Virus record (IMG/VR): IMGVR_UViG_2907408351_000002 | Direction: 5' to 3' (one strand) | Source of the DNA: a virus | Length of the DNA stretch: 64,000 bases | In this document: positions 18,956-57,026 of the stretch, one piece after another | How positions within the stretch are numbered: the stretch's first letter is position 1 | Layout: each line of letters begins with the position of its first letter | Notes under the pieces: generated by a model | Seen by the model: the letters and a program-made list of their open reading frames with translations, nothing else | What the model was told of the DNA's origin: nothing | Databases searched by the model: none | Made by a program: the position numbers and the translations under genes

Positions 18956-20044
18956 TTACTTAATATACAACACAAGTCTCTTTTGTCCAACACTCAATCC
19001 AAAATCATTAATGTCTACTTGATCTATTTTTCCAGATACATCATAAACTTTACCAATTTTAATATTTCTTACTTCTTCTTTTGAATTAACCAACTTGATG
19101 ACTTCGACAACGCTTATTGCATTGTTTATTTTTTTTAATTCTTCCAAATTATTGTTCGGAAGAATTTGATCATATTCGATTAAATAATTGCCAGTATTTT
19201 TTCCAATACTCCATTTTCTTGTAGAGCCTTTTTCAGGAATCACCGTGTTCGCGCGCAAGTTAGAAAAAGATATATTTTCACCTTTTAATTTAACTTTCAA
19301 GGATGACATTTCTTTTTTAAACTCTTCTTTCTTTTCGGATACTGCAATTTCATTATCCTCTTTTAAAATTTTGTATTTCCATAAGGATTTGAATAGATTT
19401 AGAACTTTAATATACTCATCTTTCATCATCTCATCTAAGGATATTTTATTAATCGCCTCTTTGTATAATGACTCGTCCTCAATATAGACCGTTAAATAAG
19501 ATGGATTGTAATCAATAAAACCAATATAGCCTGCAATCGGAATATATCTTTCATTCCCTTGCTTTATTTTTTCTCTTTCTTCATAGGTAGTACAATTTCC
19601 ATTTTCTTCAGGCTTTGAAATTTTGATTATTTTTATGGCGTCTATTTTCTTATTGGAAACAAACTTTGGGAGTTTTTCATTTCCAAATTGAAATTCAGCA
19701 TAGTGAAGATGTGATTTTAAATTTTTGTTATGGATGTAGCGTTTCAGCGAATATTCGTCGCCATCCCCATTTTCCATTTTTCCAAGATCATCAATATTCA
19801 ATATTTCAATGGAATCGAGAGAGAGAAATTTTCCTTTCAATTTAGAATTTAGAGAAACAATTTTCATTTCTGAAGAATCCTTCATCAGAAAATTCAGGAG
19901 ATTCAGTGTATTAGAATATTCTGCTTCGCTTTGTCGCACAGGAGAGTTCTGTAATTTTTGGTTTAAATTTGAGTCAGAGTATAACCTTAAAGAAAATAAA
20001 AAACAAAAAGTTATTATTAAAAAATACTTCATGAATAGCTCCAA
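18956..20044 (-). CDS. AT-rich secreted/lipoprotein-like moron (362 aa; N-terminal signal MKYFLIITFCFLFS…) on opposite strand inside tail module
   Basis: Signal-peptide-like N-terminus, K/N/I-rich composition, markedly lower GC than neighbours. Confidence 0.55.
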   Translation of the reverse strand: MELFMKYFLIITFCFLFSLRLYSDSNLNQKLQNSPVRQSEAEYSNTLNLLNFLMKDSSEMKIVSLNSKLKGKFLSLDSIEILNIDDLGKMENGDGDEYSLKRYIHNKNLKSHLHYAEFQFGNEKLPKFVSNKKIDAIKIIKISKPEENGNCTTYEEREKIKQGNERYIPIAGYIGFIDYNPSYLTVYIEDESLYKEAINKISLDEMMKDEYIKVLNLFKSLWKYKILKEDNEIAVSEKKEEFKKEMSSLKVKLKGENISFSNLRANTVIPEKGSTRKWSIGKNTGNYLIEYDQILPNNNLEELKKINNAISVVEVIKLVNSKEEVRNIKIGKVYDVSGKIDQVDINDFGLSVGQKRLVLYIK

Positions 20045-45879: not shown

Positions 45880-46712
45880 TTTCTTCCCAAAATTGCGCGG
45901 AGACCTTCGAACGTAACCTGATCAAAATCTTTTTGCGAGAACGTCGAGGATAGAGACTGGACGTCTTCTTGAGTTTTGCAGTTTTCCAATTTCTCAAGAA
46001 TCGATTCCTGAGATGGCCCGAGATTGATTGACTTAGTATTTTCTCCATAAAGCGCATCTGCCGCGGCAGTCGCGGAACCGGTCACTGTTTTATCCACCGG
46101 AGCTCCTTCCGCAAAAACAGGTTTGAGACATACCCACATTTTCAATGCTTGGGATTTTAGCATTTGAGTTGGTAAGTTAAGCAGATACTTTATCGCGTTC
46201 CGTTGCGCTTTCTTGTCAACACTCTCGTTTAGATGGGCTTGCTGCTTACCATGTTTAGTCATCATGGGTAACGCTTTAGGAATCGGTGGAGTGTTTATTT
46301 TTACTCCATTGGGTAGAATCATGGAAGCAACGTAGGTTATTTCTAAGTGTTTTAATCCATTGATTTCTATCTCTTCCCTTCCAACTCTTTCCAATTTTAT
46401 TCCTGTCGCTTGACCTAATGAAATAATTTTTTCGACTTTCAACATCGCATGATCTTTTGCTATGCCAATTTCTAATCCAGTTACTTCGTCATAGACATCA
46501 TTTTCGGAGACTTCTATGATTTGTGGCACGAGAGAAACACCGGCCGGTAAATGACTCATCAAAAATTCTGAGAACAATACTACGTTATAATCCTCCGGTG
46601 GAAATAATGTTCTCAACGCGGCCAGTTTATCTTTGTGATTGTTTTTGTAAGCCATCGGGTTAATGGCACCGTTCGCCAAAACGAGATCTGAAATTTTATC
46701 TGTAACACTCAT
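45849..46712 (-). CDS. Hypothetical early protein (287 aa), possible recombination partner of SbcCD-like pair
   Basis: Position only. Confidence 0.45.
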   Translation of the reverse strand: MSVTDKISDLVLANGAINPMAYKNNHKDKLAALRTLFPPEDYNVVLFSEFLMSHLPAGVSLVPQIIEVSENDVYDEVTGLEIGIAKDHAMLKVEKIISLGQATGIKLERVGREEIEINGLKHLEITYVASMILPNGVKINTPPIPKALPMMTKHGKQQAHLNESVDKKAQRNAIKYLLNLPTQMLKSQALKMWVCLKPVFAEGAPVDKTVTGSATAAADALYGENTKSINLGPSQESILEKLENCKTQEDVQSLSSTFSQKDFDQVTFEGLRAILGRKWKELGARKQ

Positions 46713-46713
46713 C

Positions 46714-47004
46714 TTATGCCTCCACCGTAAAATTGTAAGAAGACCTGATATCGGAAATCTTTGCTTTCAAATCCAAGACTTCTTTTTTTAATTTCCGATT
46801 CTCATTGAGGATCTCGCGGAAACGATTCCAGAGATTTCGGAGAACTCCGATTGATCTGATTGGTTTCATAGCATTTCGATTCAGTTTTTTTAAGGACTTC
46901 CGAATTTCAGGAGTCGATTCCGCTTCGGTAAATTCCGGAAAATCCAAAGGATTACGATTGAGCATCAATTTTCGGAGTGGTTTCATTTGCAGATCTGCAT
47001 TCAT
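46714..47004 (-). CDS. Hypothetical small protein (start moved to ATG 47004, ATGA overlap)
   Basis: Coupling logic. Confidence 0.35.
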   Translation of the reverse strand: MNADLQMKPLRKLMLNRNPLDFPEFTEAESTPEIRKSLKKLNRNAMKPIRSIGVLRNLWNRFREILNENRKLKKEVLDLKAKISDIRSSYNFTVEA

Positions 47005-47279
47005 AGTACTACGCCCTTCTCTTCTAAATATTTTAGAAGCCCGCTCATCCCGTATCCAAGTTCCGCGATTATTTTTACGCAATCTTCCGGGGATTCAACG
47101 TGATCTACAAGATTCTCATAAAGGTCCGATATCGAGAATATCCGAACATGGCAATCACCCTCTACTGCTCTGGCGAAGGCTTCAGAAAATGAAATGTCGC
47201 TAAAATCGGAAGCCGATCCGGTTACAGGAAATTTTCTTAATTCATCTCCTGCGCTTATTGTCCTAAAATTTTGGTTCAT
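47001..47279 (-). CDS. Hypothetical small protein (start at ATG 47279 preceded by AGGAGA)
   Basis: RBS on minus strand; ORF-track start 47336 lacks one. Confidence 0.4.
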   Translation of the reverse strand: MNQNFRTISAGDELRKFPVTGSASDFSDISFSEAFARAVEGDCHVRIFSISDLYENLVDHVESPEDCVKIIAELGYGMSGLLKYLEEKGVVL

Positions 47280-47441
47280 GGTTTTCTCCTTTACTTTTTT
47301 TCTAAAACTCAGGCTCATGATCCAAAAGGGCATCATGGCCTTTTCTCCAGCCTCGTTTCCGTTCCAGCGGGAACGGGGCTTCTTTATTTTGCGACCTTAC
47401 TTGATTGATAAAATATCTCAAACGGTCACATTGCTTTTTTT

Positions 47442-47864
47442 CTATGCTGTTAGCTTTGATATTCTCATTTCAGATTTTATAAGATTCCTAACGAAAGATG
47501 ACATTCCTTCCTTTGTTTTTGCTCCTTGTTCTTCTACAAACTCACGTTCTTCTTTCGTAAGGAGAACAAGAACCTGCTCGGAATAATATGAATTCACGTC
47601 CGATCGTTTTTTATAAATGCTATATCCCTTTCGATTCAAGAACTTGTATTCAGCTCTGCTTAAAGGCTCTTTTCCGATTTTTTCCGACAAATAATTCATT
47701 CGTGTTGTTACTCTAAGTTTCTTAAGATCCGAAACCTTGAATCCATGTTCAGAGTATTTTTTTATTAGTTTTGTTTCAGATTGATTGGTAATCTTTGCAA
47801 TTTCTCGTAACGTATTTCCCTCGACGTACATCCGCAAAAGTTCTTGTATTTCGATCTTTTCCAT
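47442..47864 (-). CDS. HTH DNA-binding protein (140 aa), early regulator candidate
   Basis: N-terminal …GNTLREIAKITNQSETKLIKKY…. Confidence 0.45.
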   Translation of the reverse strand: MEKIEIQELLRMYVEGNTLREIAKITNQSETKLIKKYSEHGFKVSDLKKLRVTTRMNYLSEKIGKEPLSRAEYKFLNRKGYSIYKKRSDVNSYYSEQVLVLLTKEEREFVEEQGAKTKEGMSSFVRNLIKSEMRISKLTA

Positions 47865-47877
47865 TGGATTTACTTTT

Positions 47878-48129
47878 TCAAGATGCTCTTTTATACTTGC
47901 TCGGCGTCCGGCCGTGATTTATCCCGAGATCCTTCAAATATTGAAGCACCTGATCGTTGTTAGATCTTCCTTTGATAGTATGCCGCACCGTGTCGTAGGA
48001 AACGCCCGCGATTCGAAGTTTTAAATCCATATAACCCAAACCCAGGACTTTAAGTTTTTCATCAATTTCTTCTGGCGACATAACTCCCTTCGGCCATTTT
48101 CCTTGTTGCAATTTATTACCTTTCATCAA
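47878..48129 (-). CDS. Cro-like HTH regulator (83 aa), first gene of leftward early operon
   Basis: HTH …AGVSYDTVRHTIKGRS…; divergent from CI-like gene across operator region. Confidence 0.45.
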   Translation of the reverse strand: MMKGNKLQQGKWPKGVMSPEEIDEKLKVLGLGYMDLKLRIAGVSYDTVRHTIKGRSNNDQVLQYLKDLGINHGRTPSKYKRAS

Positions 48130-48174
48130 TCGTTCCTTCTACAATGTCGTCGGTGTCGGCGTCAGAAATACACT

Positions 48175-48191
48175 GGTTTACAATGTAAACC
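48175..48191. promoter_or_regulatory. Operator O1: perfect palindrome GGTTTACA-A-TGTAAACC
   Basis: Read directly; lies in 83-bp divergent intergenic region. Confidence 0.5.
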
Positions 48192-48206
48192 TAGTCAAGC
48201 ATAAAA

Positions 48207-48220
48207 TTTACATTGTCAAC
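48207..48220. promoter_or_regulatory. Operator O2-like imperfect copy TTTACATTGTCAAC overlapping the CI-like start codon
   Basis: Shares TTTACA…TG half-sites with O1. Confidence 0.35.
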
Positions 48221-48611
48221 AGATAAATTTAAAGATTCAAAATACAGAATTCAAGAGATTTTGGACTCAAGCGGATTGGCGAAAAACGAATTCGCTGATC
48301 GGCTCGGGATCACGAAGGGTCAAGTATCTCATCTCTTATCCGGAGCGAGGAAACCTTCTCTAACGTTATCTAAACTTATAAAGTTTGAATTTGGATATTT
48401 AGAAGAGTGGACTTTTAAAGGAGAAGGTCCGATGAAATACTCTCCTCCTGGAAAGGAAGAGATGTTTAGGAAAATGGAAGAAGAAGAAAACTTTCAAAGA
48501 AAAATTAGAAATACAGAGGGAGCTCGGGAATTCGTGATGGAATATTTCGAACTGACCCCTGAGAGTCGTTCGATTTTTCTCAACTTAATGCGAAATCGAA
48601 TGAAAAATTAA
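48213..48611 (+). CDS. CI-like repressor (HTH_XRE family, no S24 peptidase domain), TTG start
   Basis: …LAKNEFADRLGITKGQVSHLLSG… HTH; divergent to Cro-like. Confidence 0.5.
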   Translation: MSTDKFKDSKYRIQEILDSSGLAKNEFADRLGITKGQVSHLLSGARKPSLTLSKLIKFEFGYLEEWTFKGEGPMKYSPPGKEEMFRKMEEEENFQRKIRNTEGAREFVMEYFELTPESRSIFLNLMRNRMKN

Positions 48612-48629
48612 TAAGAAATTTTTTACCTT

Positions 48630-49532
48630 TTACTTCAATCGATGTTTAAATTTATCGTATAGTTTTTTTGATCTTGCCCTGACATTCATATTTAAAGATT
48701 CACTTAAATAATTATTCTCTAGAAGTATTCCCGCGGTTACCGCAATCTTGCTTTCTGCTAACTTTAGATTATACCCTGCCGGATCCAATACGTTATACAG
48801 CGTCATCATTATACTAGAAGAATACCGAGACAAAATCGGAGTGCGCTCCCCCTCTAGAATTCTTTCTCGAATTTCAAACGTATCGTAATGAAGTACTGCA
48901 ACCGCCCAAAATAAAAAGAAAGGGATGAATCCGAACGCCGACTTTGAAGCCCAAAAATATCCGAAAAGAGGCATTATCCAAACACAAAAAATTGTGAATA
49001 ATAAAGCCATGATGGTTCCTGCTGAAAGAAGGAATGCCCGTATCCGTAAGTCACCGGAAAATCGAAACACCGACCTAACTAAGACTGCACAAGAAAAAGA
49101 GATATATGTGAATTCATAAAGGATTATTGCGTGATAATTTATCGTAGGCCGATATGTGAATCGTTCTGGATCTTTTATTTCTACTGCATTACACAGAAAC
49201 ACTGAGCCTATCATATAAATGAAGCCAAATAAATGTATTTGAGAAATCGTCGAACCGATCTTTAGCTCCGGGCGAAAAATCAAACGAACTATTTGGAAGA
49301 GTGAATGCGGTACAAATAAGATTGGAATCAACGTCCAGTTTAACGCAAGTTCGCGGAGAAATTCTGGTAAGAGAATACGAAATCCGTGACAGAACATCCA
49401 AACTGACAAAGCCAAGGATAATTGGAAAAAATGCTTTTGAGCAATCTTTCCTGACCCTACATTCCGAACATAAAAACCTAAAAGAACAATGAACAACCCA
49501 ACCGAAACGCTAAATATGTTTGTTACTTGCAT
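48630..49532 (-). CDS. Polytopic membrane protein (~8 TM, 300 aa); exosortase-like or sensor/transporter candidate
   Basis: Eight hydrophobic segments; SCAVLVRS motif; last gene of cargo operon. Confidence 0.5.
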   Translation of the reverse strand: MQVTNIFSVSVGLFIVLLGFYVRNVGSGKIAQKHFFQLSLALSVWMFCHGFRILLPEFLRELALNWTLIPILFVPHSLFQIVRLIFRPELKIGSTISQIHLFGFIYMIGSVFLCNAVEIKDPERFTYRPTINYHAIILYEFTYISFSCAVLVRSVFRFSGDLRIRAFLLSAGTIMALLFTIFCVWIMPLFGYFWASKSAFGFIPFFLFWAVAVLHYDTFEIRERILEGERTPILSRYSSSIMMTLYNVLDPAGYNLKLAESKIAVTAGILLENNYLSESLNMNVRARSKKLYDKFKHRLK

Positions 49533-49562
49533 GAAAAATGTATACTCAATACTGCATAAATA

Positions 49563-50186
49563 CTACATTTTCGAGGCAATTTTTTGTAAACATTCTTTTT
49601 CCAACTCGATCACATGGAATTTAGATAGTTTGCCGTTCAAATAAAATCCCGGAAAATAAAGTAAATCCGGATATCTCTCGGAATGAACGGCGCCTTCACT
49701 CAAATAGAGCTTTTCTATTCCTTTCAAATTTGGGTTGTACATTCCGTAGACAACGTCGTATCCCTTTTCATAACAGTGCTTCGCAACGGTTCTAAATGTT
49801 TTTTTTGCGGCCATCCACCCCGTTCGACTCAACTCAAATGCGACTGCGTTCCAATCTGCGACGTTCTCCGAAAGAACCGCGTAACGTATCGGTTTTTCCA
49901 AGGTCTTATCCAGAACTGCAACCTCCAGAGGTAGAAAATTTTCCGGCTGTTTCTCTACGACCCTCATTGCGGATAAGATCCTTCCCTCCTCCTCAGCGAA
50001 AAACCATGTCGACCAGTCATCGTAATCTATGTTTTTCCAACGAGAAGAAGAATAGCCTGCCTCAGAAAATATACGATTTACGAAAGCCTTTATACGCGGG
50101 ATGTCCTCGCTATCCCCGGATACGATTTTCACGGGAATTTGAGTTCTTGATTTTCGAACGGAATACTCGAGAGGATTTACGGACAT
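49563..50186 (-). CDS. LuxI/FeeM-like N-acyl synthase (autoinducer-synthase fold) candidate
   Basis: R-IF…GY, NIDYDD, EGRILSAMRVV, FELSRTGW align by eye to LuxI blocks R..VF..LGW, E.D.YD, G.v.GC.RLLP, WELSRF. Confidence 0.5.
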   Translation of the reverse strand: MSVNPLEYSVRKSRTQIPVKIVSGDSEDIPRIKAFVNRIFSEAGYSSSRWKNIDYDDWSTWFFAEEEGRILSAMRVVEKQPENFLPLEVAVLDKTLEKPIRYAVLSENVADWNAVAFELSRTGWMAAKKTFRTVAKHCYEKGYDVVYGMYNPNLKGIEKLYLSEGAVHSERYPDLLYFPGFYLNGKLSKFHVIELEKECLQKIASKM

Positions 50187-50316
50187 AATTTTATTATGTC
50201 ACATAAATTCGTTGGAATTATCAATTAGAATATTACGGAATTCGGATGTTTGTGTGATTTTTCGTTAAGGTCTTAAAGAACGGATCCGGTTTCTTCGCTT
50301 CAATCGTCTGGAGAAT

Positions 50317-50640
50317 TCAGAATCCTTCCAATATGGATTTCAAGATTGGGGTTCGATTTAATTTTCGTAGCAAATCCGTATCGCGGTCAAGTTGGGAAAT
50401 TTTTTCAGCCAACGGAATTTCGTCTTTAGGTCCGAGACCGCGGGAAAGCCAAAGATATTCTACTTTGAAAACTTCCGAAAGTTTAAGAAGAGCTGCTTCT
50501 GAAAGTTCCACCCTTTCACCAGCAAACAAAGCTTTGATAGTTGCGAATGGAACTCTGGACTGCTTCGAGATCGCTTTTGGACGCAAACCGGATTCTTTAA
50601 TGACCGTAAGGAGTCTTTCAAGCATTTCTGTGGTGATCAT
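50317..50640 (-). CDS. XRE-type HTH regulator (107 aa)
   Basis: …LRPKAISKQSRVPFATIKALFAG…. Confidence 0.5.
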   Translation of the reverse strand: MITTEMLERLLTVIKESGLRPKAISKQSRVPFATIKALFAGERVELSEAALLKLSEVFKVEYLWLSRGLGPKDEIPLAEKISQLDRDTDLLRKLNRTPILKSILEGF

Positions 50641-50667
50641 AATGGATATCTCTAAATTTAAGAAGTG

Positions 50668-51027
50668 CTATTGACTATTCTGATTAGCCTCATTGTTATC
50701 AACAGAATGCTCATTCATTTTTATGTTCGATGCCGAATTTCTGGAAGAAGTAATTTTCGCTGAGTCAAAGTCTTCAATTTTCGATTTCAAAGGTGGAAAA
50801 ATCGTTCGTATAAAATACAGATCTGAAATGGCTCCGAATGAAAACTGAGTTATTTTTTTTGATTTAAGTCCCTGGCCCCGTATCCAATAAGTAGCGAAGC
50901 CAGTTTCTATAGAAGCTAACTTTCCGAGATCTTCTGGTATATTTGTAATCTCGTAAGGAGCTTCCCAATCGATTGAATAGCCTTTCTCAATTACTATCTT
51001 TAAAACTTTCTCTAAAGAATAGGCCAT
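50668..51027 (-). CDS. Hypothetical protein (119 aa)
   Basis: ORF track; operon position. Confidence 0.4.
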   Translation of the reverse strand: MAYSLEKVLKIVIEKGYSIDWEAPYEITNIPEDLGKLASIETGFATYWIRGQGLKSKKITQFSFGAISDLYFIRTIFPPLKSKIEDFDSAKITSSRNSASNIKMNEHSVDNNEANQNSQ

Positions 51028-51036
51028 ACTTTAATT

Positions 51037-51702
51037 TTACTGAGCAAGGGCTCCAATTCGAATATCTGGCTGTTGCTCCGTCCATTCTTCCTGGCCACCT
51101 TCCAATCCGTTCCGGAGTTCAGTGATTGTTCTATTTTGTTCCTCAATCTGCTTGATCTTTGCATCCAGTTCTTTCAGAATATTTCTAATCAATTCATGTT
51201 GCTGATCAATGGTAGCGTCCTTTTGGCTCGTGACCTTTTCATGGTGATTCTTTGAAACCACTTCTAAGCCGACATTCGGTTGGACGATTTTCGACCCAAG
51301 TTCCTTCAGTTCTGCCTTCGTAGTTTTTGAATTAAAGGATTTTTCAACAAATTCCAAGTTAGCTCTGAACTTTTCGGCAAGATAACGGCGGACTCGTCCC
51401 CACAATTCTTCATTTTCGGTCGTCTCCAAAGTTTCTAATAAAAATTCTTTTCCTTCCTTCTTGATCGTAGAAAGGAAATAATCGTGCATAAGATTGATTA
51501 ACCCGACTACGGCTGATTGTGGCTCATGGCTTTCGAATGCCTGTGAATATTCCAAGCAGGTAGCCAAAAAGGATTCTTGCCCTTTATCATTTTCGTAGCT
51601 TTCAACCACGATATGAATAAGTGGAAAATTTACGATGATCGATGTTGATCTATGTTTAGCGGATAGGACTATTCGAAAATAATCTTGGATAACAGTTTCC
51701 AT
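51037..51702 (-). CDS. Hypothetical protein (221 aa), first gene of cargo operon
   Basis: ORF track. Confidence 0.45.
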   Translation of the reverse strand: METVIQDYFRIVLSAKHRSTSIIVNFPLIHIVVESYENDKGQESFLATCLEYSQAFESHEPQSAVVGLINLMHDYFLSTIKKEGKEFLLETLETTENEELWGRVRRYLAEKFRANLEFVEKSFNSKTTKAELKELGSKIVQPNVGLEVVSKNHHEKVTSQKDATIDQQHELIRNILKELDAKIKQIEEQNRTITELRNGLEGGQEEWTEQQPDIRIGALAQ

Positions 51703-51990
51703 TTTTTTCCTCAGCCTTTTCAGGGCCTTCTATCATATTCGACCAATCCGAGTCACTCCTGGATTCAAAATTGTCGAATTTACGTTTCCAAATGGGTCTT
51801 CTGGGATCTAATCGAGACTCCACGTTTTTTGCAACCATTATTATACTGGGTTAAATCTTCAAAAGCATCCAAAAGGCCGGACTACCAAACAATGAAGATC
51901 ATTTCAAGACCCGATTCTGCCTGAATCACCTCTTTTGAATTTCCAATTTTTTCCAATAATTCTTATCATCTTCAAAATTCCGCTTTCGTA

Positions 51991-52010
51991 AAATTCGAGA
52001 TTTCGAATTT
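51991..52010. promoter_or_regulatory. Inverted repeat AAATTCGA-GATT-TCGAATTT upstream of parA (operator/centromere-like); further TCGAATTT half-sites at 51774-51781 and ~51975
   Basis: Read directly. Confidence 0.45.
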
Positions 52011-52019
52011 CTAAAACTA

Positions 52020-52760
52020 ATGAAAATTGTCGCAATTTGCTCGGGCAAAGGTGGCGTCGGAAAAACAACGACGACGATCTATCTTGGTCAATCCCTCGCT
52101 TATTTAGGGTTCCGCGTCCTCCTAATTGACTTTGATTTTAACTCAAATTTGAGTAAGTTTTTCTTCAAACTCTTCAAAGACGTCGTGAACGAATCGGAAG
52201 GAAAAAATTCGTATAAAGCACTAGTCGATGGTTGCGATTTTGAACCTCATATCTACAAAACCGGAACGAAAATAGATTTCATTTCGACAATCGAGCGTTT
52301 GAAAAAAATTGACTTTGAATTCTATGATGACCCAGGGTTTAAATCACTGTTTGGAAGAGAGCTCCGAAAATTGGATTACGATTTCGTTCTAATCGATCTT
52401 CATAACGTTGTGAACGTGGTGTTGGACGCTGCGGTATTTAATGCGGATCAAATTGTTTCTCCAATGGAATACGGAGATTGGAGCCAGGATGGAACCGCAA
52501 AAATCTTAAAGCTCCATCGCGAAAATGAAATATTACAGAAAAGAAAAATCCCACTAAGAGTCGTACCTTCTCGGGTAACAAAAAAAAAGGCGGAGAAAAT
52601 CATTTCCCTCGGTGCGCAGGTCGGTCTGACTGTCAGCGGGTGCGTAAATATCAATGATGATGTCGTGCTCACGAGCTCAAACCTTGGCGAGCTATTGAAG
52701 CCCGATGTTCATGCCGCATTTGCGCGTTTCCTTGAGCTTGCGAAGGAGGTTTCAATTTGA
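52020..52760 (+). CDS. parA: ParA partition ATPase (small type-Ib-like)
   Basis: Deviant Walker A KGGVGKTT at N-terminus, 246 aa. Confidence 0.85.
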   Translation: MKIVAICSGKGGVGKTTTTIYLGQSLAYLGFRVLLIDFDFNSNLSKFFFKLFKDVVNESEGKNSYKALVDGCDFEPHIYKTGTKIDFISTIERLKKIDFEFYDDPGFKSLFGRELRKLDYDFVLIDLHNVVNVVLDAAVFNADQIVSPMEYGDWSQDGTAKILKLHRENEILQKRKIPLRVVPSRVTKKKAEKIISLGAQVGLTVSGCVNINDDVVLTSSNLGELLKPDVHAAFARFLELAKEVSI

Positions 52761-53377
52761 GTACTCCTGAAAAAAAACCCACTAAACAAGAACGTGTCGA
52801 CGCCGAGCTCGTGAAGACATTTTCGGCAAATAACGAGAAACTTCCTGCAATGAGTTCATCAGATGAGGATCCGGCGCTTACGAGACTGAAGGAAGCATAC
52901 GCATCTGTAATTTCTGCTCAAAAAAGAACCATTAAAGTTGCTATCGAATTCGGGGCAATTTTATACGAGGTGAAGCAACAGCTTAACCACGGTGACTGGT
53001 CTAAGTATATTGAGGACAACTATAACTTCCTAAAGTTTGGAACACGTGTCGCGAGTTCTTACATGAGAATTTACGACTATCGGGATCGGGTTGGAGAATG
53101 CAGAAGTATTAGAGAAGCGGATACTCTTATTCAGAGCATCATCGCTGGTGAACTTCCAGGTCCTACCGAAAAAGAAATCAACCCACCTCCCAAAAAAATT
53201 ACTCCTGAAGCCATCCTTATATTGAGAAAGCGCTTAAAAAAGGAAGGCAAAAGTTCCCTTAAAAAAAGGGAGATTTCTGAGCTAAAAAAATATCTCGATG
53301 ATATTATTAACTCGAAGACTCAGAAGTTCAATGATTCGATAAAACCGATCCAAGAAGAAAGGGATTTGCTTGAGTAG
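52757..53377 (+). CDS. Putative partition adaptor / centromere-binding protein (ParB-function, not ParB-fold)
   Basis: 4-nt overlap with parA; basic C-terminus. Confidence 0.45.
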   Translation: MSTPEKKPTKQERVDAELVKTFSANNEKLPAMSSSDEDPALTRLKEAYASVISAQKRTIKVAIEFGAILYEVKQQLNHGDWSKYIEDNYNFLKFGTRVASSYMRIYDYRDRVGECRSIREADTLIQSIIAGELPGPTEKEINPPPKKITPEAILILRKRLKKEGKSSLKKREISELKKYLDDIINSKTQKFNDSIKPIQEERDLLE

Positions 53378-53387
53378 GCAAATCGGA

Positions 53388-53411
53388 AGCGCGCTTCCGA
53401 TTTGAGAGGCC
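53388..53411. promoter_or_regulatory. Perfect 24-bp palindrome AAATCGGAAGCG|CGCTTCCGATTT followed by T7 run (terminator and/or protein-binding site)
   Basis: Read directly. Confidence 0.45.
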
Positions 53412-53439
53412 TGATTTTTTTATTCAGATGGCAAAAAAT

Positions 53440-53826
53440 GTGTACCCAAAATCGTACACGGGTTTTAGAGTACCGAGAGAAAGGAAGGCGCCCGCCTAAA
53501 CCTTTTCTGTTTCGATGCCTGCGGCGGAGGTGAGAGTCCACGCAGGTTTTTCTCCCGCCTAAAGCACGTTCCAAGAGACATAAATTTTTATGAGACATAG
53601 TATTATTATGCTTGACTGTTTTTTCAAAAATCCCGCTAGTCTGTACCCGTTTAGTCGACATAGCTAAACAACGGCCACTCTCACAATTCGGCCGAATGAA
53701 ACAGAAAAGGGAACCATACTTTCGGCTCCACGCTCGATCTATGCTTCTCGATTCCAAAGAGTAGGGTAGTCCATCTGCCGTGCCGCACCCGATTTATGTC
53801 CGGCGCCTCAGAAAAGGAAAAGGATC
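53440..53826. other. Origin-like non-coding region upstream of rep: direct repeats CCCGCCTAAA (53499-53508, 53562-53571), palindromes GTGTAC…GTACAC (53447-53466) and ATTCGGCCGAAT (53694-53705), AT-rich block 53590-53640
   Basis: Repeats read directly; GC-richer than flanks; overlapping minus-strand ORF 53320..53757 looks non-coding (Arg/Cys-rich). Confidence 0.4.
53526..53559 (+). terminator. Hairpin CCTGCG-17 nt-CGCAGG + T5
   Basis: Read directly. Confidence 0.45.
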
Positions 53827-54528
53827 ATGAAAGAATTGATCTATGGCGAGTTCATACCTCGCACTATAATCAACACCAAACTTGGCAGAGGAATGCGTGA
53901 CGTCCTCGCAAAAATTACGCTCCTCGATATCAACGGACGCATCGAAGGTCGCGGTGGATGCTACGCAGGGAATGAATACTTGGGTCAGGTTTTAGGAATG
54001 GCGACGACGACCATAGCAAAATATATTTCTCGCCTACGAAAAGCTGGTTACATAAATCAAGTTTCTTTCAACGGAAGGATTCGAGTAATTCAATCAAGTT
54101 TTCATGACGCCGTTATATTCGAAAGAGCTCAGTATCAAATATCCAAAACCGCCGTTCAAAACGATCCTAGTCAGAATAGTACGGATGGTAAGGGCAGGGG
54201 GGTACGAGATTCCAAATCTGCCAAAGATAAACGTTCCGCTCCTGTACGTACTAAAGAAGAGAGAGCAAAAACAGTAAATCTACCGGGTGCTGATAAATTG
54301 AAACCGACTTGGAGCGATTTCCAGCCTTGGTATAAGGATCGCTTAACAAAATCAAGTATAGATATTTTAGATAATCTTCAATTTGAATTCGTACATGATA
54401 AATTGATAATTTTGTGTGGAGTTCCGAATTCATTAAAAATGATTATCGAGAAATTCTTCACTGAAGAAGTCGTCACTCCAATTCAGGTTGTATTTCGCGA
54501 ACAGCATAAGGAGAGAACGGCCGCATGA
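53827..54528 (+). CDS. Putative replication initiator (winged-helix)
   Basis: …LGQVLGMATTTIAKYISRLRKAGYINQV… HTH; position next to parAB and iteron-like repeats. Confidence 0.4.
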   Translation: MKELIYGEFIPRTIINTKLGRGMRDVLAKITLLDINGRIEGRGGCYAGNEYLGQVLGMATTTIAKYISRLRKAGYINQVSFNGRIRVIQSSFHDAVIFERAQYQISKTAVQNDPSQNSTDGKGRGVRDSKSAKDKRSAPVRTKEERAKTVNLPGADKLKPTWSDFQPWYKDRLTKSSIDILDNLQFEFVHDKLIILCGVPNSLKMIIEKFFTEEVVTPIQVVFREQHKERTAA

Positions 54529-54612: not shown

Positions 54613-55065
54613 GTGGCGATTTCAGAGATAGAAATTCTAAAACCAAAATTTACGCCTGGAAACGAATACCCGTTCCTTGAAGGAATAAGCGCGGGCTTCT
54701 CATCTCCGGCGGAAGAGTATTTAGAAAACGTTCTCGATTTGACAGAAGCGGTCGTGAAAAATCCGAATTCAACTTTTTTCGGACGGGTCCGTGGAAACTC
54801 GATGATCGGCGCGATGATTGCGGAAGGGGACATCCTCGTCATAGACAAATCTGTTCGACCGATTGATGGAGACCCGGTGGTTTGTTCGATTGATGGGGCC
54901 TTTCTCTTGAAGTTTCTTAAAATAGAAAAAAGTGAAGGGTGGCTGATACCGGCAAATCCCGAATACAAGCCGATTCGAGTCACGAAGGAGAATGATTTCC
55001 AGATTTGGGGGACCGTCATGTGGATAACACACAGGGCCAGAAATGTACGCGCTTATCGACTGTAA
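54613..55065 (+). CDS. umuD: UmuD-like S24 peptidase (LexA C-terminal domain family), GTG start
   Basis: Ala-Gly cleavage site (GISAGF), GNSM active-site Ser, downstream Lys (FLLKFLK). Confidence 0.8.
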
Positions 55066-56305
55066 TTCCTTCTACGTTTCTTGTGAGCGTATTTTTAGAC
55101 CGGATCTTCAAAAAAAACCGGTTGTCGTTCTTTCGAACAATGACGGGTGCGTTGTATCGCGGAGCCAGGAAGCAAAAGACCTCGGGGTAAAAATGGGAGA
55201 AGCGGTTTTTCTCCGAAAGGAATATTTCACGGAAAACCGGATCGAAATGTTTTCTTCCAATTATACTCTATACGGAGATATTTCCAGAAGAGTAATGAAT
55301 CTTCTTTCCGATTTCTCTCCGGAAATGGAAATCTATTCCATCGATGAGGCATTCCTGGGATTTTCCGGCATCGCAGAGGAAAGCCATCCGGGAATCGCGA
55401 GACGAATCAAGGAAACGATTCCGAGAAACACCGGAATTCCTGTGAGCGTCGGCATGGGACCAACTCGGACGCTTGCGAAACTCGCGAACCATATCGCGAA
55501 GAAGCGAAAAGAATATAACGGAGTCTATATCATAAAAAACGAAAGCGTCAGAGAAGAAGCGCTCCGGATGGTATCGATCGGGGACGTTTGGGGAGTCGGC
55601 CCGAGTTACCGGAAGAAACTTGAAAAGGTAGGGATCGAAACCGCATATGATTTTTCCCGGATGAATGTCCACTGGGTTCGGAAAAACTTAACGGTCGTCG
55701 GTGCGCGGATGAATTACGAACTCCGAGGAATTCCCTGTTCTGGTCTCGTTCCTCCGGACGCGGAAAAAAAATCGATTTCGATCGCCCGGTCTTTCGGAGA
55801 GATGCAGGAAGATTTCGATTCAATGGCCGCGGCAGTTGCTACTTTTGCGAGCCGTGCCGCCTACAAACTCCGGAGGCAAAAAAGTTTTGCGAATATGGTT
55901 CTCGTTTTTATTCATACAAACCCGCACAGGCAAGATCTGGAGCAATATGCCCGGAACATCGTTGTCCGACTCCCGGTTGCTTCGGATTCCACCTTTGAGA
56001 TTGTTCGCTACGCACTCGCCGGACTTCGGCAGATATACAAACCAGGATTCAAATATAAAAAAGCCGGGATCGTTTTGGACGGAATTGTTTCGGGAACCGG
56101 AATTCAGCCGGGACTTTTTGATTGCGTCGATCGTCCACGGGATGCGAAAATCATGGAAGTCATAGACTCGATGAATTCGAAATTCGGTAAGGAGCGGATC
56201 CGTCTCGCTGTTACCGCCCAAAAAGACTCTTGGAAACTTAGACAGGAACACCATTCCCCGAACTATACGACTGACTGGAAGGAGATAATCAATGTGCTTT
56301 CATAA
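55043..56305 (+). CDS. umuC: UmuC-like Y-family DNA polymerase
   Basis: N-terminus [15 protein letters not shown]… and …SIDEAFLG… catalytic motifs. Confidence 0.9.
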
Positions 56306-57026
56306 CTCGATGTCAGCGGACGCGATGAGTCTGAAGAAGAGATACAACGCCGAGCTGATTCATCCGGAAAAATTCCAGCCAATATACCACGAAAACGCTT
56401 TCCAACATCGCCCGCGCCCTATTATCACCGGAGACAACCCGAAGTTTATTCAAAATTTCGTTTGGGGCCTAATTCCTTCCTGGACAAAGACGGAAGTTTC
56501 CGCAAAGGAAATTCAAGAATATACTCCGAACGCTAGATCAGAATCGGTTTTTGAAAAGCCGTCATTTCGTGGTGTGATCAGGTCTAAGCGTTGTCTCATA
56601 CCATCGACTGGTTTTTTTGAATGGCAGGACTTCAAGGGAAAGAAATACCCCTATTTCATTTTTCTGAAAGACCAGGAGATCTTTTCTTTTGCAGGTATTT
56701 GGGATTCTTGGAAGAATCCAGCATCGAAAGAAACAATATACTCATTCTCCATTTTAACAACGGACGCGAATAAATTCATGTCCCGGATCCATAATTCTAA
56801 AAAAAGGATGCCGTTGATACTTCCGAAGAAAGAGGAGGGGGCTTGGATAAATCCGGATCTGAAAGATGAAAAAGAAATTCGAAAATTGTTTAAGATTTTC
56901 CCAGAAGAAAAAATGGAAGCCTACACAATCTCAAAGTTGATAACATCGAGAAAAGAAAACTCAAATACTTTGGAAGTAAATTTAGAGTTCAGTTATCCGG
57001 AGTTGACCGAAGAGAATTTATTTTAA
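56292..57026 (+). CDS. yedK: SRAP/YedK-family abasic-site processing protein
   Basis: Cys2 start (MC…), [37 protein letters not shown] align to E. coli YedK blocks. Confidence 0.85.

Follow-up and report, generated by a model that had tools for sequence, protein, structure and literature searches.

We find that a 64,000-nucleotide (nt) stretch of viral DNA, IMG/VR record IMGVR_UViG_2907408351_000002 (here called the window), is an LE1-like phage-plasmid of Leptospira adleri, and that it carries a self-contained three-gene cassette that is modular and mobile within Leptospira, where it is widespread but unstudied. Two cassette genes lie on the minus strand: one (49563-50186) encodes a 207-aa GNAT-fold (GCN5-related N-acetyltransferase) enzyme of the LBL_2463 family, a LuxI/FeeM-like putative N-acyl synthase, and the other (48630-49532) a 300-aa LIC10906-family membrane protein with a seven-transmembrane (7TM) sensor-type domain, HisKA_7TM, and a ~75-aa cytoplasmic three-helix tail, but no kinase domain. 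The third gene (48213-48611, plus strand) is convergent with the 7TM gene and ends 18 nt from it; it encodes a 132-aa CI-like regulator of the XRE helix-turn-helix (HTH) type, hereafter CI132. Together these genes resemble a synthase-sensor circuit of a known type, to which they would add two new traits, a kinase-less 7TM receptor and a CI-type repressor. A megablast of positions 47000-53500 against plasmids and phages returned zero matches, so the work described here required protein-level searches.

To follow the cassette, we pooled loci from a species-representative genome scan, exact-protein look-ups, plasmids and phages, and IMG/VR. Each of the 28 non-identical Leptospira pairs has one and the same layout, a synthase gene followed immediately by a co-directional 7TM gene; the pairing is kept in a 25%-identical L. 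broomii paralogue, and the same arrangement is seen in 9 of 9 IMG/VR viral loci. An XRE HTH gene of ~130 aa, from a single family that includes LE1 gp79, directly adjoins 26 of the 28 pairs, and for this reason we count the CI-like gene as part of the cassette. It lies upstream and co-directional in 12 cases and downstream and convergent in another 12, while two loci (the window and the syntenic plasmid L006) have both. An earlier note on this DNA had seen the genes as cargo placed beside the lysogeny switch of one element. That picture does not hold: the CI-like gene is a near-constant third part, and the cassette, which occurs in pathogenic and intermediate Leptospira, recurs on 101 Leptospira plasmids (167 places), in five LE1-like prophage records and at many chromosomal sites, with three to four sites per genome in several species. 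LE1 itself lacks it. Outside the related plasmids L006 and L007, the loci have only the cassette in common with the window within 8 kb on either side, except for a few that also share an adjoining umuDC-SRAP block.

The three proteins have diverged to different extents: mean pairwise identity falls from 48% in the synthase to 35% in the 7TM protein and 28% in the HTH protein. Synthase and 7TM proteins co-diverge, their distances being strongly correlated (r=0.92). HTH distances track the cytoplasmic tail of the 7TM protein best (r=0.81), but near-identical pairs dominate the Pearson value, and we take this correlation as suggestive only.

In the LE1-like prophage LbrZ_5399 (KF114879; locus L031, 5200-12600), three units of a 7TM gene and a convergent HTH gene stand in tandem; unit 1 is preceded by two synthase paralogues, unit 2 has no synthase directly before it, and unit 3 is preceded by a TPR protein and no synthase. 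On the L. interrogans chromosome (L001, 1-12630), the cassette containing LIC10905/LIC10906 sits between large RHS/YD-repeat toxin-like genes (TEN_YD-shell, SpvB), and an AraC-type regulator is divergent from the cassette HTH gene.

As a full-length member, the 207-aa protein falls into NCBIfam NF047533, 'LBL_2463 family protein' (259.3 bits, cut-off 110; it covers profile positions 2-177 of 177), a family with no assigned function, and PHROGs places it in phrog_10106, also of unknown function. Its AlphaFold model is confident (pLDDT 89) and shows the GNAT-derived alpha/beta fold common to solved N-acyl-homoserine lactone (AHL) synthases. By structure it comes closest to two AHL synthases, TofI and LasI, and to FeeM (2g0b), which makes N-acyl amino acids, and in Foldseek the model falls among GNATs generally; neither a tRNA-acetylating GNAT toxin nor an unrelated fold, the outcomes that the earlier note had named as telling against its reading, came out as the best match. 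Relatives are few: a profile search of 1.84 billion representatives recovered just 48. We aligned 47 sequences as the wider family and 24 homologues as the Leptospira set. FeeM (PF21926) is the only Pfam family matched recurrently in the wider family, weakly in 14 of the 47 members (best E 3.9e-4, all under the 27-bit cut-off). Acetyltransf_5 is weakly matched by two of the 47, Autoind_synth by one (E 0.026) and canonical Acetyltransf_1 by none. When the 47-sequence profile was compared by hhalign with a LuxI profile (a small one, of four sequences taken from PDB alignments), the two aligned over 132 columns with 84% probability, which indicates a remote relationship and not family membership; the control, a RimI-type canonical GNAT profile, gave 33% over 55 columns with the same query.

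Thirty-six residues are invariant in the 24 Leptospira homologues, implying an active enzyme; across the wide family only R75 and E88 are. None of the 24 contains the Q/RxxGxG/A acetyl-CoA motif. The earlier note had read three LuxI blocks into the sequence, and their first two survive in part as the family-conserved positions G44-Y45 and Y55-D56-x-W58. The third, FELSRTGW, occurs in just two of the 24 sequences (the window protein and P0002); only its F117 (invariant) and G123 (conserved in at least 90%) are kept among the homologues, and hhalign aligns the LuxI ELSRF block to R101-Y102 instead. Of the LuxI catalytic and S-adenosylmethionine (SAM)-binding residues that we tested (R23, F27, W33, D45, D48, R70, E101, S103 and R104 in native LasI numbering), conserved counterparts exist solely for D48, R70 and R104, which hhalign aligns with D56, R75 and R101. 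Because similarity in fold and profile goes together with sub-threshold Pfam scores, we class the protein as a GNAT-fold enzyme of the LuxI/FeeM structural type that lies outside both Pfam families; the LuxI/FeeM likeness claimed earlier thus stands at the level of fold and remote profile similarity, and not at that of the Pfam thresholds. Its most likely reaction is the N-acylation of a small amine or amino acid, with an acyl donor bound to acyl carrier protein (ACP) or CoA.

The 300-aa protein scores 330.9 bits against NCBIfam NF047679, 'LIC10906 family membrane protein' (cut-off 200), and 30.6 bits against Pfam HisKA_7TM (PF16927; cut-off 28.6), covering profile positions 5-222 of 224. HisKA_7TM is the N-terminal 7TM region of histidine kinases. 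Eight transmembrane helices had been proposed for this protein; the predicted structure (pLDDT 75) instead has seven, together with a short periplasmic hairpin (117-129) and three cytoplasmic helices (233-299). A positive-inside reading of this model suggests a receptor-like topology, with the N-terminus out and the C-terminus in. Pfam detects neither a HisKA (DHp, dimerization and histidine phosphotransfer) nor a HATPase_c domain in the 300 residues: the kinase is gone, and all that follows the membrane domain is a short cytoplasmic helical tail. A search with the single query and a profile gave seven close homologues. Across 32 homologues of 20-65% identity, the conserved positions are Gly, Pro and aromatic residues along with R52, D217 and D250, and no Cys/His/Glu catalytic set is conserved. 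We also considered a membrane hydrolase of the CPBP/PAQR type and rejected it.

Distant relatives of the synthase place it beside intact kinases. On three unrelated metagenomic contigs, a homologue of 22-30% identity lies directly upstream of a full-length 7TM histidine kinase: L046 encodes a response regulator, the synthase and a HisKA_7TM-HisKA-HATPase protein of 691 aa; L048 the synthase, a HisKA_7TM-GAF-HisKA-HATPase protein of 677 aa and a response regulator; and L053 an HTH_3-HisKA fusion and a response regulator, the synthase and a 7TM kinase of 694 aa. A fourth contig, L049, starts with the same arrangement and ends inside the downstream gene. A hidden Markov model (HMM) of the Leptospira 7TM proteins matches the N-termini of the three full-length kinases with E-values of 5e-16 to 6e-10 and the truncated L049 ORF marginally (E 7e-4), and HisKA and HATPase_c domains are present in the partners of L046, L048 and L053. 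Since distant homologues pair with 7TM kinases, the association of synthase and 7TM protein predates the Leptospira cassette; since the same domain forms the N-terminus of full-length histidine kinases, the 7TM domain is a genuine signal-input domain. These findings favour a synthase with a cognate sensor whose output runs through the repressor. A metagenome scan of the distant subgroup yielded four loci, among them one unrelated Rv0428c-type GNAT and one locus without a 7TM partner.

Two of the distant loci deserve separate mention. In L053, the fusion (1189-1872) is a 227-aa protein that joins an XRE HTH_3 domain to a HisKA (DHp) domain and is divergent from the pair of synthase and 7TM kinase; it may be a 'Rosetta-stone' clue to communication between CI-like HTH proteins and the kinase dimerization domain. 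In L032 (1-10684), on a GC-rich 855-kb contig, the distant synthase homologue P0065 has no 7TM partner and is surrounded by genes for a 2OG-Fe(II) oxygenase, an amine oxidase, a carbamoyltransferase and an SxtJ-like protein, in what looks like a small-molecule biosynthetic neighbourhood.

The third cassette protein, CI132, contains an HTH_3 domain (28.4 bits) and matches both phrog_2328, 'transcriptional repressor' (E 2e-11), and LE1 gp79, which is annotated as a CI repressor (28% identity, E 6e-12); the HTH proteins of other cassettes match gp79 with E-values as low as 5e-17. Pfam finds no S24 autocleavage domain in CI132. Its XRE HTH, divergent position, operator repeats and phage-repressor homology are those of a CI/ImmR-type phage repressor, as which we provisionally identify it on these sequence features. 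The divergent promoter region between CI132 and the gene for an 83-aa protein (p83) contains operator-like sites (48175-48220), namely the perfect palindrome GTTTACAATGTAAAC at 48175-48191 and a second copy, TTTACATTGTCAAC, at 48207-48220. These are the sole matches at 0-1 mismatch in the whole window, and the motif is absent upstream of the synthase gene and near parA. Other cassettes have their own, different paired palindromes just upstream of their own HTH genes.

CI132 faces p83 (47878-48129, minus strand; phrog_7494), which occupies the Cro position, heads a leftward early operon and has homologues adjoining the cassette in 11 loci. The early operon also includes a homologue of LE1 gp76 at a RecT-like position, an SbcD-like metallophosphoesterase and an SbcC-like ATPase. 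LE1 has gp80 and gp81 between its CI gene (gp79) and parA; the corresponding slot of the window holds the 7TM gene, the synthase gene, a gene for a 107-aa HTH protein and two unknown genes, and no ImmA-like ORF was found in the window. LE1 gp81 (L035, 7826-9541) is a Peptidase_M78 protein of the ImmA/IrrE type that, next to the CI protein gp79, makes up an ImmR/ImmA-like switch, and gp80 (394 aa) has no Pfam match.

We consider the gene content, the folds, the family relationships, the strict linkage and the linkage to 7TM kinases to be solid. On this basis we propose that the enzyme would make a lipophilic N-acyl compound, that the 7TM protein would sense this compound in the membrane, and that its cytoplasmic tail would relay its state by protein-protein contact to the CI-like repressor, which would act at its own palindromic operators. 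The repressor holds the CI position, divergent from the early (recombination/replication) operon, and the cassette fills the slot that has an ImmA/IrrE-type protease in LE1; from this position, it may supply the input to the lysis-lysogeny (or maintenance) switch. The chemistry, the sensing of the product by the 7TM protein and the coupling to the repressor are steps that we infer, and we would put the chance that this synthase-sensor-repressor mechanism is correct a little short of even. A bolder form of the proposal is unlikely as it stands, although worth stating. In that form, the cassettes of LE1-like phage-plasmids, and dozens more on the plasmids and chromosomes of pathogenic and intermediate Leptospira, would each be a complete acyl-signal circuit of a kind so far undescribed, in which a FeeM/LuxI-like synthase, a kinase-less 7TM receptor and a CI-type repressor set lysis-lysogeny or plasmid maintenance by 'voting' among elements, as a lipid-signal counterpart of arbitrium with many parallel channels.

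Several observations pull the other way. The window enzyme itself scores only 14.7 bits against FeeM (E 0.028; the gathering cut-off is 27 bits) and has no match to Autoind_synth (PF00765) at E<=1, and a PDB sequence search with profiles A1 and A2 gave nothing meaningful. The N-terminal SAM-binding block of LuxI (R23/F27/W33) is unaligned and lacks a conserved counterpart, and the positions matching the catalytic Glu and Ser (E101/S103) are variable. An acyl product is a conjecture. The small-molecule signalling module proposed in the earlier note gains strength from the LuxI-like profile and from evidence beyond the reach of that note, the invariant pairing and the kinase-linked relatives; its acyl signal is putative. 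Beyond Leptospira, a 7TM partner is found in just four of eight contexts, including L049 at its contig end, and four have none. The synthase is more conserved than the sensor and the HTH protein, where private channels might be expected to diversify all three equally. The link from the 7TM protein to the HTH protein, drawn from adjacency and one distance correlation, is suggestive: the Spearman coefficient for HTH and 7TM-tail distances is just 0.42. Finally, 7TM-HTH units without a synthase are present in L031 and L033.

The most serious rival, unlikely in our view but credible, is that the cassette is a lysogen accessory (a moron) tied to the immunity region in the manner of lambda cI-rexA-rexB: the enzyme and membrane protein would provide superinfection exclusion, abortive infection or another host benefit, and the CI-like gene would be a neighbouring repressor that drives their expression. 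Lambda likewise has a repressor beside a cytoplasmic and a polytopic membrane protein, co-directional as in half of the cassettes; in 12 cassettes the HTH, synthase and 7TM genes run together and away from the Cro-position gene, as in the lambda PRM operon. A variable slot beside the CI gene of LE1-like elements, multiple fast-diverging copies on plasmids and prophages, and chromosomal copies that retain the cassette alone, as decayed prophages retain immunity regions, all suit an accessory of this kind. Yet there is no sequence or fold relationship to the lambda proteins, and PADLOC matches neither the synthase nor the 7TM protein. The enzyme resembles small-molecule synthases, and the membrane domain is a histidine-kinase sensor input domain whose distant relatives work in ordinary two-component systems without phage context. 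Improbable, too, is a regulatory protein acyltransferase, in which the GNAT enzyme would modify its own partners, acylating the 7TM sensor or the CI-like repressor at the N-terminus or at a lysine, with no diffusible signal. The GNAT fold is compatible with such a role, as are the strict linkage of enzyme and 7TM protein and their co-divergence (r=0.92), and a modifier accessory to the sensor would explain the persistent pairing with full-length kinases just as well; against it, the acetyl-CoA-binding motif is absent, Acetyltransf_1 is unmatched where FeeM is matched in 14 of 47 members, and the closest structural neighbours are small-molecule acyl synthases.

The remaining alternatives strike us as weaker. 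If the enzyme instead N-acylated a membrane lipid head group or its precursor, as OlsB- or GlsB-like proteins do in aminolipid synthesis, the 7TM protein would be a membrane partner or flippase, and the outcome would be envelope remodelling (lysogenic conversion). FeeM-like enzymes are related to the N-acyltransferases of aminolipid synthesis, two family members weakly match Acetyltransf_5, and the expression of the chromosomal pair shifts in the host-adapted state. We nonetheless think this quite improbable: the partner is a sensor-type 7TM domain without conserved catalytic residues, neither a PlsC-type O-acyltransferase nor a known flippase, and the relatives are linked to kinases and response regulators. 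There is little chance that the genes form a type II toxin-antitoxin system, with an XRE-HTH antitoxin, a GNAT toxin acetylating aminoacyl-tRNA and the 7TM protein as an accessory. Half of the cassettes have their HTH gene immediately before the GNAT gene, and cassettes sit on plasmids in several copies, as would agree with it, but in the other half the HTH gene is convergent and downstream of the 7TM gene, and the invariant partner is the 7TM gene and not the HTH gene. The enzyme also lacks the CoA site and the Acetyltransf_1-type profile of the TacT/AtaT/KacT toxins, and no adjacent ribbon-helix-helix (RHH)/DUF1778 antitoxin accompanies it. Least probable by far is the alternative raised in the earlier note, an 8-TM exosortase with an exosortase-associated N-acyl amino-acid synthase, which shares with the cassette only the general picture of a polytopic membrane protein beside a FeeM-like enzyme. 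Profile searches refute it, since neither Pfam nor NCBIfam gives any exosortase, TIGR02602, PF09721 or TIGR03694 match at E<=1, and the membrane protein has seven helices, a HisKA_7TM match and no conserved Cys/Arg/His set, with neither Cys nor His conserved in the 32 homologues.

Set beside known systems, the proposed synthase-sensor-repressor circuit shares features with several and coincides with none. The enzyme aligns with the LuxI AHL synthases (TofI, LasI, EsaI and BjaI) in the hhalign comparison and at D56, R75 and R101, and both lack the CoA P-loop motif; unlike them, it has no Autoind_synth match, SAM block or conserved E101/S103, and its partner is a 7TM sensor and not a LuxR-type receptor. 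To the FeeM synthases (PF21926; PDB 2g0b) it is tied by the one recurrent Pfam match of its family, but the scores stay under 27 bits, and the window has neither an adjacent ACP (FeeL-like) gene nor other fee-cluster genes. The order of a synthase followed by a sensor kinase is known for LuxM-LuxN and CqsA-CqsS. In these systems and in AinS-AinR, the synthase lies directly upstream of a polytopic membrane sensor, and the distant cassette relatives extend the likeness with their full histidine kinases and nearby response regulators. The comparison is one of how the systems work only: their synthase and sensor families are unrelated to those of Leptospira, and the Leptospira cassette has no kinase and a CI-type repressor as its linked output.

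Among phages, arbitrium AimP/AimR, VqmA-phi of VP882, the LuxR protein of ARM81ld and the agr genes of phiCDHM1 also place signalling genes beside the lysis-lysogeny regulator of a temperate element, and several elements of this communicating or eavesdropping group are phage-plasmids too. They use peptide signals or only a receptor for host autoinducers, whereas the window element carries a putative acyl-compound synthase, a 7TM sensor and a repressor together, and the Leptospira cassette, unlike arbitrium-type systems, is also found outside phage genomes. Closest in position is the ImmR/ImmA-like pair of LE1 (gp79/gp81). CI132 is homologous to gp79, both lack the S24 autocleavage domain, and the cassette takes up the corresponding space between CI and parA; the window has GNAT and 7TM genes there in place of the M78 protease, and it is a matter of speculation that these genes functionally replace ImmA.

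We know of no quorum-sensing or phage-communication system in Leptospira, and literature searches returned no functional study of either protein family, members of which appear only in expression tables. LIC10905/LIC10906 are listed in the table of the L. interrogans PerRA/PerRB regulon in the host (dialysis membrane chambers, DMC), with fold-regulation of 19.5 and 3.6 (PMC8638967), a listing that may tie the chromosomal copy to infection. In single mutants of perRA and of perRB alike, expression of LIMLP_04325 is raised (bioRxiv 10.1101/2020.11.06.371039), and this gene also flanks a peroxide-responsive non-coding RNA (PMC7567364). If the synthase-sensor-repressor circuit is real, it would be the first acyl-type signal system that a temperate phage-plasmid carries in its entirety, and it would give the HisKA_7TM sensor domain a ligand and a function. 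The circuit would also offer a handle on how the plasmids and prophages that crowd the genomes of pathogenic Leptospira are induced and maintained.

The assignment of the window to an LE1-like phage-plasmid follows from its combination of tailed-phage structural genes with partition and replication genes. Its major head protein shares 69.6% identity with the counterpart in Leptospira phage LE1, PHROGs for tail sheath, baseplate and fibre are detected, and positions 52020-54528 encode ParA, a DUF3102 protein at the ParB position and a Rep-like protein. The host species is indicated by NCBI protein P0001 of L. adleri, which is 99% identical to the window's 207-aa protein. The P0001 record (191 aa) begins the synthase gene 16 codons further downstream, and the 207-aa start (MSVNPLE) agrees with the conserved MSxxLE N-termini of homologues.

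The ORF table bears out the five minus-strand ORFs described earlier, with a divergent parA (52020-52760; AAA_31/CbiA) 317 nt away at one end and the CI-like gene at the other. Upstream of the synthase gene and co-directional with it lie the gene for the 107-aa HTH protein (50317-50640, minus strand) and two genes of 119 aa (50668-51027, minus strand) and 221 aa (51037-51702, minus strand), a pair assigned to phrog_24157 / phrog_16723, of unknown function. The 107-aa protein, called an XRE regulator in the earlier note, scores 19.6 bits against HTH_3, under the Pfam cut-off of 23; its place as a second, shorter member of the CI-like HTH family comes from jackhmmer clustering and phrog_8 (E 5e-7), and it is 49% identical to the upstream HTH protein of L006. 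A single five-gene operon, as had been supposed, is not established because a 130-nt gap separates this gene from the synthase gene. The 119-aa and 221-aa genes, which have homologues solely in L006, are element backbone outside the conserved cassette. Rfam gave no match in 46000-54000, and a promoter and terminator scan gave counts not above shuffled expectation.

Three further features of the window lie apart from the cassette. At 54613-57026 are genes for a umuD-like protein (Peptidase_S24, 150 aa), a umuC-like Y-family polymerase (IMS, 420 aa) and a 244-aa SOS-response-associated peptidase (SRAP), and the same block is the immediate neighbour of the synthase-7TM cassette at L010, L017 and L025, which are chromosomal or other loci. 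A strong terminator-like hairpin (47349-47380, plus strand), with a 14-bp stem, eight GC pairs and a T-rich tail, sits between the early genes for proteins of 140 and 111 aa. The window's lowest-GC kilobase (18956-20044; GC 0.29 against ~0.41 elsewhere) contains a 362-aa minus-strand ORF that lies amid plus-strand tail genes, has no Pfam match and is possibly a moron.

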